Both the position numbers and the translations under genes were made by a program. The notes under the pieces were generated by a model. It saw only the letters and a list, made by a program, of their open reading frames with translations, was not told the origin of the DNA and did no database searches. From assembly GCF_011045215.1 (NCBI RefSeq), contig NZ_CP049201.1: a stretch of 64,000 bases of DNA. One strand, written 5' to 3'. The stretch comes from Escherichia coli. Its GTDB lineage: Bacteria > Pseudomonadota > Gammaproteobacteria > Enterobacterales > Enterobacteriaceae. Shown one piece after another: positions 38,341 through 64,000 of the stretch (its first letter is position 1; every line of letters begins with the position of its first letter).

Positions 38341-38439
38341 ATGGCAATGAGCTTCTGATAATTAAGAGTTCGTCAAGTAGTTAAAAGAGTTTTTTCATGT
38401 GCATCCAGTCTCAACTTATAAATGAGAAGGATGTGCGTA

Positions 38440-39315
38440 ATGAACATTCTGCCCGTTGTGTCCACCAAAGGTGGCGAAGGAAAATCAACCCAGTCTGCTA
38501 ACCTTGCCGGTTTTCTGGCGGATGCCGGCCTCCGTACCCTGCTGATAGACGGAGACCATGCCCAGCCCACGGCAAGCAATATCTTTCCGCTGACGTATGA
38601 AGCGCCGGCCGGTCTTTTTGAATTACTGATGCGCACGGCTGACCTCAGTCATCCCGACAACATCATTTCCCGCACGGCTATCGACGGCCTTGACCTGATA
38701 GTCTCCAATGACCCCCATGAACAACTGAAAACGGCCATGCTTCATGCGCCGGATGGTCGTCTCCGTCTGCGTAATGTGCTCCAGCATCCGCTTTTCCAGA
38801 GCTATGACGTCATTGTGGTGGATTCACAGGGCGCGCGTTCCGTCATGCTGGAAATGATTGTGCTGTCTGCCACGGAGTCTGTGGTGGGGATGGTGAATCC
38901 GGTTCTGCCGGATGTGCGTGAGTTCATTCGCGGCACAGTCAATGTCATGGAAAACCTGTTGCCCTACCGTGAACTGGGTATCCCCCTGCCGAAAGTCCGC
39001 ACCCTGGTTAACTGCATGGATTATACGGCGCTGGCCAGACAAACACTGGCGGAGCTGACCGACATTATTAACTCCGGTCGCTACAGCAAAGTGCTTCCGG
39101 AAGGCGCGGTCACCCTGCTTTCAACACAGATTTATGACCTGAATATTTACAAACAGGGACACGCAGCCGGCCAGCCGGTGCACCGCCTTGAAAAAGCGTC
39201 TGCCCGTCGCAGTGATTCTGCGCTGGTCACCATGCACAGCCTGGCCTGTGAGTTGTTGCCGGAGTGGAGTGAGTTTTTTGATGTACTGCTGGAAAACGGA
39301 GGTGAAAGCCTGTGA
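38440..39315 (+). CDS. parA: ParA/Soj-family partition ATPase
   Basis: Deviant Walker A KGGEGKST near the N-terminus; start set to ATG 38440 (MNILPVVSTKGG) preceded by gagaagga; track ORF starts at 38422. Confidence 0.8.
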   Translation: MNILPVVSTKGGEGKSTQSANLAGFLADAGLRTLLIDGDHAQPTASNIFPLTYEAPAGLFELLMRTADLSHPDNIISRTAIDGLDLIVSNDPHEQLKTAMLHAPDGRLRLRNVLQHPLFQSYDVIVVDSQGARSVMLEMIVLSATESVVGMVNPVLPDVREFIRGTVNVMENLLPYRELGIPLPKVRTLVNCMDYTALARQTLAELTDIINSGRYSKVLPEGAVTLLSTQIYDLNIYKQGHAAGQPVHRLEKASARRSDSALVTMHSLACELLPEWSEFFDVLLENGGESL

Positions 39316-39701
39316 ACAGAAAACTGATATGGCGTGCTGTGGCTTCAGCTTCAGTTTCCTGCCCCGGACACGATGAAGTGCATGTGTTTGTTGAGGCTGC
39401 AGATTACGAAGAAGCGAAAAAACATTTGTATGACCGTCTGGAGGAGGAATGGCAGCTTCCTGTGAGCCACATAACTTTCCACAACGTGTGGAATGAAAAC
39501 GAGCTATGTGAAATGTCTGCAGGTCCGAAGGTGCCTTCAGGCCTTCCCCTGCTTGAGTCGGGTGGGGGAAATGGTGAGGTCTTTTATGACCATAATCCGC
39601 TGCTCCTCATTGCTTCTCAGCGTCTCAGGGCTGTGATTGAAGGGGTGCTGAGTGTCCTGCCAGAGCGTGGTGAACAGGATGAGTGTGGTCGTGGAATTTA
39701 A
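39312..39701 (+). CDS. Hypothetical island protein (129 aa)
   Basis: GTG start overlapping the parA stop, preceded by ggaggtgaaag; no recognisable domain. Confidence 0.45.
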   Translation: MNRKLIWRAVASASVSCPGHDEVHVFVEAADYEEAKKHLYDRLEEEWQLPVSHITFHNVWNENELCEMSAGPKVPSGLPLLESGGGNGEVFYDHNPLLLIASQRLRAVIEGVLSVLPERGEQDECGRGI

Positions 39702-39942
39702 GTCTCTGACAGGTCGCAGCCGGACAGTATGTGTCGGGTGTGGTTATTCCGGTGTTCGGTTTGGTGATGCTGCAGGCCAGGACACCCGGCAGTGGGTGAA
39801 GGTGAATCATGAGAGCGGGCTGGGGCTGTGCTCCGGCTGTGATGCCTTTCTTTTGCAGGAACGCCTGCGTCGTCAGCGGCATGACCCGCTTTTTTCATGT
39901 GGTGTTTCCGGCAAACATCGAAAAACAGAGGGGGCGATATGA
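39679..39942 (+). CDS. Hypothetical small protein with two CxxC pairs (possible zinc ribbon)
   Basis: ORF containing CVGCGYSG and CSGCDAF; start ambiguous (GTG 39652 or ATG 39679). Confidence 0.35.
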   Translation: MSVVVEFKSLTGRSRTVCVGCGYSGVRFGDAAGQDTRQWVKVNHESGLGLCSGCDAFLLQERLRRQRHDPLFSCGVSGKHRKTEGAI

Positions 39943-40016
39943 CAGTTTTTGTAATGCATATCCCTGTCGGTACCGGGGACAGCGGACATGTGTGGTGTCC
40001 GCTGCATGCTGATGAA

Positions 40017-61469: not shown

Positions 61470-61625
61470 CCCGTGTGCAGGCAAATGTTCCTTGCAAAAT
61501 GGCATCTGAATCGATCGCAGTTTGGCATTCGAATCGATCATGATTTGGCATCCATCTCCGATCACAGTTTGGCATCACAATCGATCACGATTTGGCATAC
61601 TTCCGATCATTGATTGGAATTCGCC
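61470..61625. repeat. IS21-family terminal region with multiple direct repeats (putative transposase binding sites)
   Basis: Five copies of tttggcat-N8-10-gatc(a/g) immediately upstream of istA. Confidence 0.7.
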
Positions 61626-61693
61626 AGTCACTCCGGGAATTAACTCTTTTCACCACAGTCTCCATTGCCGTGTTTAAACCAGTGGAGACGTCA

Positions 61694-63259
61694 ATGTCCA
61701 AAAAGAGAAAATCCAGGAGCACTATGGAAACTTGTTTTAAGATCCTTCAGCTCAAGTTCGATAAGAAGCTGACTAACCGTTGTATCGGACTGACGTTACA
61801 CATCAGCGCCTCAACCGTTTTTGAGGTTCTTGCCCGCTTCAAAGCCTCTTCTCTGTCATGGCCATTACCTGCTGATATATCCCATGACACGCTGGAGAAA
61901 CTCATTTTCCCGCCCAAAGACACCTCTGCGTCAGAGCTTGTTATGCCTGACATGCTGTACTTCGATACGGAAATGAGAAAACCTGGCGTGACGCGCCAAC
62001 TGTTGTGGATGGAATACAAGGCACAGGCGGGTGACAAAGCGATGGGATACTCACACTTCTGCCGTTGCTACCGGAAGTGGAAAAAAACGCGACGCCTCTC
62101 CATGCGACAGGAGCATCGTGCTGGCGAAAAGCTCTTTATCGACTTCTGTGGTCCTACGGTCCCTGTTATTAATCCGGACACCGGAGAGATACGCCGCGTG
62201 GCAATCTTCGTGGCTGTAATGGGGGCGTCCAACTATACCTATGTTGAAGCGTGCGAAGGTCAGGACATGATGTCATGGTTAAATGCCCACAGCCGTTGCC
62301 TGACCTTCCTGGGCGGCGTACCGAAGCTGCTCATCCCCGATAACCTCAGAAGCGCAGTGAAAAAAGCCGATCGCTATGAGCCTGTCATCAACGACAGTTA
62401 TCAGGCGCTGGCTGAGCACTATGGCACGGTTATTATCCCGGCCCGCCCGCGCAAACCTAAAGATAAACCAAAAGCAGAAAACGGCGTCCTCATCGTCGAG
62501 CGATGGCTTCTTGCCCGCATCCGTAATGAAACCTTCCACACGCTCAGGGCGCTGAATGCACGCCTTCGGGAGTTGCTGACGGACATGAATAACCGACCAA
62601 TGAAGGGATACGGTAATCAAACCCGCGCAGAACGCTTCCGCATGCTGGATGCACCAGCACTCTCTCCGCTGCCTCTGGAGCCTTATGAATACACGGAATA
62701 CAAAGCCGTGAAGGTTGGCCCTGACTACCACGTTGAATATGCCCGTCACTGGTACTCCGTTCCACACGAACTGGTCGGTCAGCGTCTGTCACTGAAGGTG
62801 GGGCAGTCGGTGGTACAGCTCTGGCACAAGGGGCAGTGTGTGGCGCAACATCCGCGCAGCACACATGAATATAAACACACAACCAATCCGCTTCACATGC
62901 CAGAACGCCACCGGCGGCATGGGACATGGACACCGGAACGCCTTATCGAGCAGGGAAACCGTACAGGTCCGTCCACAGGCCGGGTGGTTGAATCCATGCT
63001 GAAAGCCAAACCCCATCCGGAGCTGGCTTACCGTGCAGTCCTGGGTCTGCTGGCACTTCAGAAAAAATACGGCCCGGAACGGCTGGAAAAGGCCTGTTAC
63101 GTTGCCCTGCACTATAACGCCCCGGACAGACGCTTTATCGACAATCTGCTGCGTCATCATCGGGATAACGTTGAGCTTCCGTTATCCCGCCAGGGCGAAC
63201 AACATCCGGCATATGCTTCAGAGCATGAAAACCTGCGTGGTCCTGGCTACTACCACTGA
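61694..63259 (+). CDS. istA: IS21-family transposase IstA
   Basis: N-terminal HTH, DDE integrase core; start chosen at MSKKRKSRS (track ORF begins 61592). Confidence 0.85.
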   Translation: MSKKRKSRSTMETCFKILQLKFDKKLTNRCIGLTLHISASTVFEVLARFKASSLSWPLPADISHDTLEKLIFPPKDTSASELVMPDMLYFDTEMRKPGVTRQLLWMEYKAQAGDKAMGYSHFCRCYRKWKKTRRLSMRQEHRAGEKLFIDFCGPTVPVINPDTGEIRRVAIFVAVMGASNYTYVEACEGQDMMSWLNAHSRCLTFLGGVPKLLIPDNLRSAVKKADRYEPVINDSYQALAEHYGTVIIPARPRKPKDKPKAENGVLIVERWLLARIRNETFHTLRALNARLRELLTDMNNRPMKGYGNQTRAERFRMLDAPALSPLPLEPYEYTEYKAVKVGPDYHVEYARHWYSVPHELVGQRLSLKVGQSVVQLWHKGQCVAQHPRSTHEYKHTTNPLHMPERHRRHGTWTPERLIEQGNRTGPSTGRVVESMLKAKPHPELAYRAVLGLLALQKKYGPERLEKACYVALHYNAPDRRFIDNLLRHHRDNVELPLSRQGEQHPAYASEHENLRGPGYYH

Positions 63260-63275
63260 CAGAAGGAACAACCGT

Positions 63276-64000
63276 ATGAGTGATAATCTGTTAAACAAAC
63301 TGACCCAACTGAAACTCCCGGCGATGGCCGGGAGCCTGATACGGCAACGGGAAACGCCTCAGACTTACGACGAACTGTCGTTCGAGGAAAGGCTGACACT
63401 GCTGGTTGATGACGAGCTTCTGAGCAGAGAAAACAGTCGTGTGGCACGGTTGAGAAAAAATGCCTGCCTGAAATATCAGGCAACACCGGAAGGGCTGCGT
63501 TATCCGGCCTCAAGAGGTCTGCGGGCTGAACAGATGAGGGAACTGCTGAACGGCCACTACATAATCCACAGGAAAAACCTACTGATAACCGGTCCGACAG
63601 GATGCGGTAAGAGCTGGATAGCCAATGCGCTGGGCGAACAGGCATGTCGACAGAAATACAGCGTCCGGTACTGTAGAACCGGGCGATTACTGGAACAGTT
63701 GGCTCAGGGACGTGTTGATGGCAGTTGGCTGAAATATCTGAAACAGTTGCAAAAAATACAGGTTCTAATCCTGGACGATCTGGGGCTGGAACAGTTAAGT
63801 AACGCCCAGTGTAATGACCTTCTGGAGATCACAGAGGATCGTTACGGACAAAGCAGCACGATAGTGGTAAGCCAGTTCCCGGTAGATAAATGGCATGGTC
63901 TGATGGAGAACCCAACAACAGCAGATGCCATCCTGGACAGACTGGTACATAACTCACACAGAGTGGTCCTTCAGGGAGAGTCCCTGAGGAAAAATCCCCC
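63276..64000 (+). CDS. istB: IS21-family helper ATPase IstB (partial, runs off window end)
   Basis: ATG 63276 preceded by gaaggaaca; hand translation MSDNLLNKLTQLKLPAMAGSL... with Walker A GPTGCGKS and Walker B ILDDLG; no stop before position 64000, so absent from the ORF track. Confidence 0.85.
   Translation, partial: MSDNLLNKLTQLKLPAMAGSLIRQRETPQTYDELSFEERLTLLVDDELLSRENSRVARLRKNACLKYQATPEGLRYPASRGLRAEQMRELLNGHYIIHRKNLLITGPTGCGKSWIANALGEQACRQKYSVRYCRTGRLLEQLAQGRVDGSWLKYLKQLQKIQVLILDDLGLEQLSNAQCNDLLEITEDRYGQSSTIVVSQFPVDKWHGLMENPTTADAILDRLVHNSHRVVLQGESLRKNP

Follow-up and report, generated by a model that had tools for sequence, protein, structure and literature searches.

We analysed a stretch of 64,000 nucleotides (nt) of Escherichia coli DNA (NCBI RefSeq assembly GCF_011045215.1, contig NZ_CP049201.1), hereafter called the window. 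With a probability of about 0.9, positions 38341–61492 are the left, tRNA-distal end of an integrative conjugative element (ICE) of the SPI-7/ICEEc2/PAPI-1-pKLC102/ICEHin1056 (MPF_G) family, inserted in the 3′ end of the tRNA-Phe gene pheU between cadC and yjdC. As an island it is ordinary: it is a mosaic member of a known ICE family, disrupted by an insertion sequence (IS), its genes are already named by the NCBI annotation pipeline (PGAP), and its best name is ICEEc2/SPI-7-type. The new item is an unannotated, thrice-repeated structured element next to the island helicase gene, dnaB-PI, which may act as an RNA leader for a small divergent gene designated orfX. This leader and the stacking of gene modules around it provide a modest but concrete new lead.

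The family assignment is based on proteins of the window that exceeded the curated cut-offs of family-specific NCBIfam models, namely dnaB_SPI-7_type, ICE_PFGI_1_parB, STY4528, PFL_4669, STY4534, PilL, TIGR03759 and PFL_4695. The maintenance/replication module, which is complete in the window and lies opposite the integrase end, is arranged in the order ParA, DnaB, ParB, DUF2857, STY4528, PFL_4669, TopB/Ssb and STY4534, and the gene order corresponds to those of ICEHin1056 and of the ICE of E. coli strain 8178. An earlier note, made by eye from this DNA, had proposed an element of the SPI-7/PAPI-1/ICEclc family with the order parA, dnaB, parB, replication gene, topB, ssb, pilL-like gene and conjugation genes, and this order was recovered in the list of open reading frames (ORFs) and the NCBIfam matches. 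Its impression that the element is richer in G+C also agreed with the computed contents, 0.558 (38335–61480) vs 0.491 (1–38285), and the codon-composition check that it had recommended gave a G+C content at third codon positions of 0.627 in the island backbone genes vs 0.476 in cadABC (62.7% vs 47.6%). Both dnaB-PI and parB were detected at a coverage of at least 80% in 113 of the 5426 complete E. coli genomes (~2%). The best single match to the query among these genomes had 85% coverage and 96.4% identity, and the exact mosaic was absent from them.

The alternative named in the earlier note was a prophage. We regard a prophage or phage-inducible island as having almost no chance of being correct here, even though some small ORFs match families that phages also have (Ead/Ea22-like ones, or PHROGs without a known function), and homologues of DnaB, Ssb and ParB are also known in phages. 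The PHROG searches yielded only unknown-function families, and no capsid, terminase, portal, tail or lysis family was detected among the window ORFs with NCBIfam and PHROGs. ICE-specific equivalog models were above cut-off, the type IV secretion system (T4SS) genes encoding PilL, TIGR03759 and PFL_4695 are located in the window, and the complete relative in strain 8178 has a full MPF_G T4SS and TraI. A prophage was rejected for the part in the window, since structural, packaging and lysis genes were not found in the ORF searches.

The island/att junction lies exactly at position 38341, the base that follows a 49-nt copy of the tRNA-Phe 3′ end. This copy is identical to the 3′-terminal 49 nt of pheU as annotated in E. 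coli 8178; it matches the first 49 nt of the tRNA-Phe interval L004:16980-17055 of that strain, after which the sequences part. On the cadC side of the copy lies the pheU terminator hairpin, and the left flank, dtpC-cadA-cadB-cadC, was found in 5425 of the 5426 complete E. coli genomes. The far end of the complete ICE of strain 8178 consists of an intact tRNA-Phe gene followed by yjdC-dsbD-cutA. Because the 49-nt copy and the cadC flank are found here, and intact tRNA-Phe and yjdC are found at the far end of the relative, the insertion site is pheU. The locus named in the earlier note was therefore right, as marked by the 49-nt copy beside cadC, but only this remnant of pheU is in the window, where ARAGORN detected no complete tRNA. 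In relatives, a frameshifted integrase fragment is annotated between cadC and the tRNA-Phe remnant and maps to ~37935–38046 of the window (from L001:2563-2674, L001 being the ICE locus of strain 8178); the window itself was judged at this site only from a 97% DNA alignment that starts at 38000. The fragment in the relatives suggests that an older island may once have held pheU.

Comparison to known systems showed that ICEEc2, which was absent from the list in the earlier note, is the closest named relative. The host of ICEEc2 is E. coli BEN374, where the element is located in tRNA-Phe; it belongs to the pKLC102/PAGI-2 family (Roche et al. 2010, as cited in PMC6761156 and PMC11537424). ICEEc2 and related pheU/pheV ICEs of clinical E. 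coli share with the window the species, the tRNA-Phe site and a PAPI-like backbone (PMC6761156, PMC11537424, PMC13127887). The complete E. coli relatives have the same left end and gene names; unlike ICEEc2-type relatives, the window copy carries three modules between parA and dnaB and an ISSso4 insertion. In E. coli 8178, a complete ICE of ~64 kb at pheU is 94–97% identical in DNA sequence over most of 38000–61491, and continues with TraD, TIGR037xx genes, a conjugative VirB4-like ATPase, TraG, TraI and a tyrosine recombinase beside intact pheU-yjdC. SPI-7 inserts at pheU, and its named NCBIfam models (dnaB_SPI-7_type, STY4528 and STY4534) were exceeded by window proteins, but none of its cargo (Vi capsule, SopE-phage) was seen in the window. 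ICEHin1056 of Haemophilus influenzae (NC_011409.1), which inserts in tRNA-Leu and was typed as MOBH/MPF_G by PLSDB, shares the order ParA, DnaB, ParB, DUF2857, STY4528, 36-bp array and PFL_4669, then Ssb/TopB/STY4534, lipoprotein, TIGR03759, SLT and ICE protein. It differs in that its STY4528 homologue is only 28% identical, the order of ssb and topB is swapped, and dnaB follows straight after parA, with no orfX or leader by annotation (the covariance model described below was not run on NC_011409.1). The 5′ module of ICEHin1056 was shown by experiment to be needed for transfer (PMC3739013). PAPI-1, pKLC102 and PFGI-1 of Pseudomonas and ICEclc share 49-bp att repeats from the tRNA 3′ end, a replication/partition module opposite the integrase, a direct-repeat putative oriV upstream of the PFL_4669 homologue and an MPF_G T4SS with PilL (PMC2647930, PMC5587801), and differ in their tRNA-Lys or tRNA-Gly sites, in their cargo and in a ParB identity of ~44%. 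This last value refers to P. aeruginosa plasmid/ICE ParB and to the N-terminal half only, over which identity to ICEHin1056 ParB was 39.7%.

The right side of the element in the window is cut within the transfer operon. Homology to the ICE of E. coli 8178 stops at 61491, which corresponds to L001:23574 inside the L001 gene 23534-24316, and an ISSso4 copy with 23-bp terminal repeats at 61500–61623 comes next. Since ISSso4 starts ~40 bp inside the gene that comes before traD, this ICE copy is probably transfer-defective or truncated, and its mobility cannot be assumed. The earlier note had counted at least 25 kb of element in the window; 23.15 kb is ICE, and 61493–64000 is ISSso4. For the T4SS, the first MPF_G genes (TIGR03748, TIGR03759 and TIGR03765) were seen before ISSso4 at 61493, and the remainder was seen in the relative. 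Some points weigh against the presence of a complete ICE: the ICE–ISSso4 junction occurs in no complete E. coli genome of the collection, so that the rest of the element may be absent; the integrase, relaxase, coupling protein, VirB4, T4SS core, second att and intact pheU are located outside the window; and replication from the 36-bp array and ParA/ParB partition are attributed to it by analogy with the family. We therefore considered a decayed, non-mobile remnant, in which the ISSso4 insertion, perhaps accompanied by a deletion that the IS mediated, eliminated the transfer, relaxase and integrase genes or their function and left only the maintenance module at pheU. The end of homology at 61491 followed by ISSso4, the one orfX copy that lacks a start codon, the junction that prevents the right side from being looked up in complete genomes, and the integrase pseudogene fragment beside cadC in relatives, which indicates earlier island turnover at the site, are all consistent with such decay. 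However, the backbone ORFs from parA to 61454 are all intact and 94–97% identical to the ORFs of complete ICEs, and a plain IS insertion without deletion fits equally well. We view the remnant as a tentative alternative, somewhat on the doubtful side, and it bears on the state of the element and not on its family.

In a complete element of this family, the tyrosine recombinase at the far end would recombine the 49-nt tRNA-Phe repeats and excise a circle, judging from the E. coli 8178 relative and the literature. By the same family analogy, the circle would be kept by ParA/ParB and would probably replicate from the iteron array through the action of the STY4528-family protein, along with the island DnaB, Ssb and TopB, and would then be sent as single-stranded DNA via a MOB_H relaxase and the MPF_G T4SS.

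The interval between parA and dnaB-PI measured 3.4 kb in the window vs ~0.5 kb in the closest relative, and contained three direct repeats of ~220 nt (family D2; 40411–40633, 41414–41636 and 42530–42752) that were 75–88% identical. The third repeat ends 9 nt before the dnaB-PI start codon, and its structured core (42529–42707) ends ~55 nt before it. The minus strand of each repeat carries a Shine-Dalgarno (SD) sequence and the beginning of a small ORF, orfX, which encodes a product with the N-terminus MNT(E/N)..QLPSGI(D/E). Copy 2 reads ATAAATACAG, whereas all other copies read ATGAAYAC, and its ATA start and broken frame therefore indicate that one of the three modules carries a pseudogene (orfX2). 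A visibly similar full-length version of orfX2 was found at L086:2562-3038. The ATA start change is also present in E. coli C5 (L002), which matches repeat copy 2 at 100% and has an integrase and another island in its flank before att. Relatives of OrfX amounted to 22 cluster representatives among 1.84 billion proteins, none of them detectable outside these ICEs. The protein had no Pfam domain, searches with NCBIfam, PHROGs and PADLOC were uninformative, and its AlphaFold2 model was all-helical, with a pLDDT of 67 and without a fold match.

For structure prediction, 23 non-redundant copies of the element were aligned; RNAalifold predicted most of four helices (P1–P4), which were refined by hand. 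A covariance model (CM) built from this alignment detected 29 copies at 74 bits or more in E. coli, Serratia, Pantoea, Edwardsiella and metagenomes, and 89.9% of the cells in the CM alignment were paired. Compensatory double changes were observed at 13 base pairs, compared with 5.1 ± 1.4 in shuffled alignments (0/500) and 3–6 in slid-register controls. Helix P1, GCCGGACG/CGUCCGGC, was changed to GUCGGACG/CGUCCGAC and to GCCAGGCA/UGCCUGGC in other lineages. The 3′ arm of P1 lies in orfX codons 8–11, and the helix thus encloses the whole 5′ untranslated region, the SD sequence and the AUG. In the orfX sense, copy 3 had a minimum free energy of −71.1 kcal/mol as RNA (z = −5.5); this fold gave P1–P4 plus one more hairpin, formed by pairing of the conserved AUUCAU with the AUGAAU of the start codon, and the SD sequence lies within it. 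In this geometry of P1 and the AUG hairpin, the element resembles leaders that control translation by locking SD and AUG into a hairpin. No match to the element was obtained in Rfam 15 at gathering or permissive E-values, the best being mraW with 18.6 bits vs a gathering score of 50.

On this modelled structure, the chances seem to us about even that the ~180-nt element, present in three copies on the minus strand, is a cis-acting RNA leader for translational control of orfX. Its closing helix would pair with codons 8–11 and the inner hairpin would lock SD and AUG, so that OrfX synthesis would await some trigger, which could be arrival in a new host, excision, or an ICE-encoded factor that binds the invariant GUUUGGCGAC loop. 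A search of the window for trans targets of the invariant loop GTTTGGCGAC gave none beyond chance. Several points tell against the leader: the alignment is CM-fitted and leans towards the model, the sequence diversity is confined to few lineages, the strand preference is modest (pairing of 93.4% in the orfX sense vs 90.5% on the other strand), and a sigma-70 scan of 39300–42800 found no consensus promoter.

The conserved fold has to be weighed against two simpler or different uses of the same DNA. The repeats might be merely a conserved divergent promoter region that was duplicated with the genes and is under no selection for secondary structure; they do sit between divergently oriented genes, the sequence of most columns is conserved, and many pairs show no variation. 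This appears improbable, because compensatory changes preserve the four helices in copies from Escherichia, Serratia, Pantoea, Edwardsiella and metagenomes, in the numbers given above, and the fold is far more stable than that of shuffled sequences. The element might also act as DNA, either as a single-stranded structure after conjugative entry, serving dnaB-PI and the module genes, for instance, as a promoter or priming signal like Frpo/ssi, or as a gene-cassette recombination site. It directly precedes dnaB-PI and each plus-strand gene of the modules, folds strongly as single-stranded DNA on both strands (z of −4.5 and −3.7), pairs nearly as well on the dnaB strand (90.5%), and delimits modules of ~1.0–1.3 kb that recur in different combinations in metagenomic contigs; moreover, no function has been established for STAXI and the other structured motifs that typify these ICEs (PMC5587801). 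Nevertheless, the pairing of P1 with orfX codons 8–11 and the AUG/AUUCAU hairpin suit translational control and not a DNA promoter or recombination site, G-U cells exceeded A-C cells (47 vs 26) in the orfX sense, and the stems contain no −35/−10 consensus. No blastn match was found on 72,556 plasmids, leading regions included, which argues against a relative of the F-type leading-region (Frpo/ssi) elements, and homologous recombination at a conserved 200-nt sequence suffices to produce tandem modules. We therefore consider a function as DNA unlikely. A transposable origin of the repeats, as miniature inverted-repeat transposable elements or repetitive extragenic palindromes, was rejected since every sampled copy occupied the same syntenic ICE slot.

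Returning to the leader, the element was present in 138 complete E. coli chromosomes, with one to six copies each. The usual order in divergent E. coli, Serratia, Pantoea and Edwardsiella ICEs and in metagenomic contigs was parA, opposite-strand orfX, element and dnaB-PI; minor variants had orfX between dnaB and the next gene (L166) or a small gene between the element and dnaB (L167 and L085). The CM found no match in the ICEs of Erwinia psidii and Cedecea neteri. A scan of genome contigs with DnaB-PI returned mostly chromosomal DnaB (~54% identity) and recovered three ICE loci (L005–L007). The modules of the window recurred singly or in other combinations in metagenomic contigs, at spacings of 1003, 1116 and ~1281 nt. 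Two leader copies flanking orfX were found in the closely similar Serratia ICEs L160 (3864-4036 and 4476-4648) and L163 (3864-4036 and 4461-4639) and in the metagenomic ICE contig L168 (117-289 and 759-880), so that E. coli is not alone in having tandem modules. These recurring combinations suggest that the modules were probably piled up by recombination between ICE variants at the conserved element, which would then also be the crossover point where variable gene modules stack beside the island replication genes. On balance, we find it an evenly poised proposition that the element is, in full, a previously undescribed cis-regulatory RNA of SPI-7-type ICEs, a four-helix leader that would lock SD and AUG and would double as this crossover point.

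SPI-7/ICEEc2-type ICEs at pheU/pheV have already been described and their genes named by the NCBI pipeline, and the island itself adds little. Their practical importance is also already known: their cargo includes virulence and resistance genes, and for clinical E. coli an ability to drive Hfr-like transfer of chromosomal DNA has recently been reported (PMC13127887). A covarying, translation-locking leader back-to-back with the helicase operon would offer a testable handle on the control of replication, excision and establishment in the enterobacterial branch. With its stacked modules, the parA end of these ICEs stands out as a variable hotspot that had not been noticed before. Alongside the STAXI-type motifs of MPF_G ICEs, the putative orfX leader adds a further conserved structured element confined to the family. 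The features of the island are listed in Table 1.

Table 1. Features of the ICE end and of ISSso4 in the window, with 36-bp arrays of related elements (L-numbers denote loci outside the window)
Feature	Position	Strand	Evidence or remark
att remnant, 49-nt 3′ end of tRNA-Phe (pheU)	38292..38340	-	island boundary; contiguous with pheU terminator and cadC
parA (Soj-like partition ATPase)	38440..39315	+	ParA/AAA_31-type NCBIfam matches; PGAP "ParA family protein" in relatives
conserved hypothetical, 129 aa	39312..39701	+	similar ORF (by eye, unaligned) after parA in Edwardsiella ictaluri ICE, L006:5655-6011
orfX1, small divergent gene, 142 aa	40017..40445	-	ICE-restricted family of unknown function; start inside leader copy 1
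orfX-leader copy 1 (candidate)	40407..40588	-	CM R1 204.8 bits; repeat family D2; encloses orfX1 SD and AUG
hypothetical, 171 aa, coiled-coil-like, module 2	40650..41165	+	similar ORF (by eye, unaligned) in same position, L086:2192-2755
orfX2 pseudogene	40996..41450	-	start ATA (41448-41450 region); frame broken after conserved N-terminus
orfX-leader copy 2 (candidate)	41413..41591	-	CM R1 208.4 bits
hypothetical, 245 aa, module 3	41676..42413	+	without family match
orfX3, 76 aa, orfX paralogue	42334..42564	-	ORF list; begins MNTEKQLPSGI; start inside leader copy 3
orfX-leader copy 3 (candidate)	42529..42707	-	CM R1 209.1 bits; directly upstream of dnaB-PI
dnaB-PI, SPI-7-type island replicative helicase	42761..44128	+	NF040583, 690.2 bits vs cut-off 655
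ICE-type ParB	44125..45804	+	TIGR03764 ICE_PFGI_1_parB, 379 bits vs 143.75
DUF2786 and DUF2857 genes, maintenance module	45797..47097	+	PGAP names on ~94% identical relative block; phrog_421, phrog_37384
variable small genes: 82-aa ParE-toxin-like, 126-aa ORF, 173-aa Ead/Ea22-like	47094..48134	+	PGAP names in strains C5 and 8178
STY4528-family island replication protein	48214..49482	+	NF040582, 404.6 bits vs 130
36-bp x 16.4 tandem array, putative iteron-type oriV	49507..50095	.	Tandem Repeats Finder score 968; directly after STY4528-family gene
MipA/OmpV-family outer-membrane protein, accessory gene in backbone	50355..51101	+	weak OmpV match; PGAP name in relative
PFL_4669-family ICE protein	51266..51964	+	TIGR03761, 229 bits vs 110.7
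DNA topoisomerase III (topB)	51975..53984	+	TIGR01056, 818 bits vs 515.75
STAXI RNA (RF01728)	54298..54448	+	135.2 bits vs Rfam gathering score 40.5
STY4534-family ICE replication protein	54615..55070	+	NF040584, 196 bits vs 160
single-stranded-DNA-binding protein (ssb)	55380..55913	+	TIGR00621, 183 bits vs 53.95
Rpn-family recombination-promoting nuclease	55962..56894	+	TIGR01784, 119.5 bits vs 52.1
MPF_G transfer module start, 5 genes	57080..60343	+	TIGR03748, TIGR03759, TIGR03765 above cut-offs
PilL	57080..57682	+	TIGR03748 (conj_PilL) above cut-off
257-aa Tat-signal protein	between PilL and TIGR03759 gene	+	part of transfer module 57080..60343
TIGR03759 gene	58453..59178	+	above cut-off
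SLT-like protein	59157..59819	+	weak: Pfam SLT i-E = 0.058
PFL_4695	59816..60343	+	TIGR03765 above cut-off
Mrr-like restriction-endonuclease-domain protein	60340..60945	+	PADLOC mREase_IV, E = 1.2e-5; PGAP name
170-aa hypothetical	60942..61454	+	PGAP name in relative
first ~13 codons of gene preceding traD in relatives	to 61491	+	homology to L001 ends at 61491
ISSso4 (IS21 family), in transfer operon	61493..64000	+	NF033546; 99.8-100% identity to other ISSso4 copies
istA of ISSso4	61592..63259	+	istB runs past window end
36-bp array of E. coli 8178	L001:11807-12182		36-bp period, 10.4 copies
36-bp array of Erwinia psidii	L005:9164-9426		36-bp period, 7.3 copies; different but also palindromic sequence
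36-bp array of ICEHin1056	L169:5977-6142		36-bp period, 4.6 copies

The tandem array contains in each 36-bp unit a 16-bp palindrome, TGCTGCCCGGGGCAGC(A), also written TGCTGCCCGGGGCAGCA. Arrays of the same period lie directly after the STY4528 homologue in three other elements, those of E. coli 8178, Erwinia psidii and ICEHin1056; across the four distant ICEs the period of 36 bp was constant, the sequence differed, and the copy number ranged from 4.6 to 16.4. Iteron-like oriV sequences have been reported for ICEHin1056, pKLC102, SPI-7 and PAPI (PMC2258188), and the putative oriV of PFGI-1 was placed immediately upstream of PFL_4669 (PMC2647930). The array of the window fits this description and may, by analogy, be a putative origin. 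The chromosome record of E. coli C5 starts and ends within the 36-bp array, and PGAP names an array ORF "saposin", which is probably an annotation artefact. The window also holds one STAXI RNA, a motif typical of MPF_G ICEs (PMC5587801). The ICE of E. coli 8178 has three STAXI copies and an EFASI motif; two further STAXI and the EFASI lie in its cargo-proximal part (L001:44412-44565, 45072-45229 and 46662-46787).

Among the remaining genes, PF10979 and PF11198 match orthologues of the DUF2786/DUF2857 genes. The small genes at 47094–48134 belong to PHROG families of unknown function, and the DNA diverges from strain 8178 at this point. The earlier note had recommended searches of the hypothetical genes, and the 129-, 171- and 245-aa ORFs proved to have homologues in related ICEs. 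These three ORFs received no family, defence-system or fold assignment (NCBIfam, PHROGs and PADLOC, with Pfam for the 245-aa ORF only), and the best trace among them and orfX was a signal at the level of SspB/DUF4007 with E > 0.005. The lytic transglycosylase listed in the earlier note was not confirmed: the position of the SLT-like gene and its PGAP name in the relative, in a block of ~94% identical DNA, agree with it, but the Pfam E-value was 0.058, and no BLASTP match to the SLT gene of ICEHin1056 and no sequence match in the PDB were obtained, so that the assignment is weak. Finally, the core part of the window contains features unrelated to the island. Rfam identified the small RNAs STnc630 (169 bits) and naRNA4/CssrE (104 bits) at 7786–7951 and 2031–2107, and stretches of low G+C content (0.40–0.44) occur in the core flank at 27000–30000 and at 35000–38000, the latter around cadC and its upstream region.

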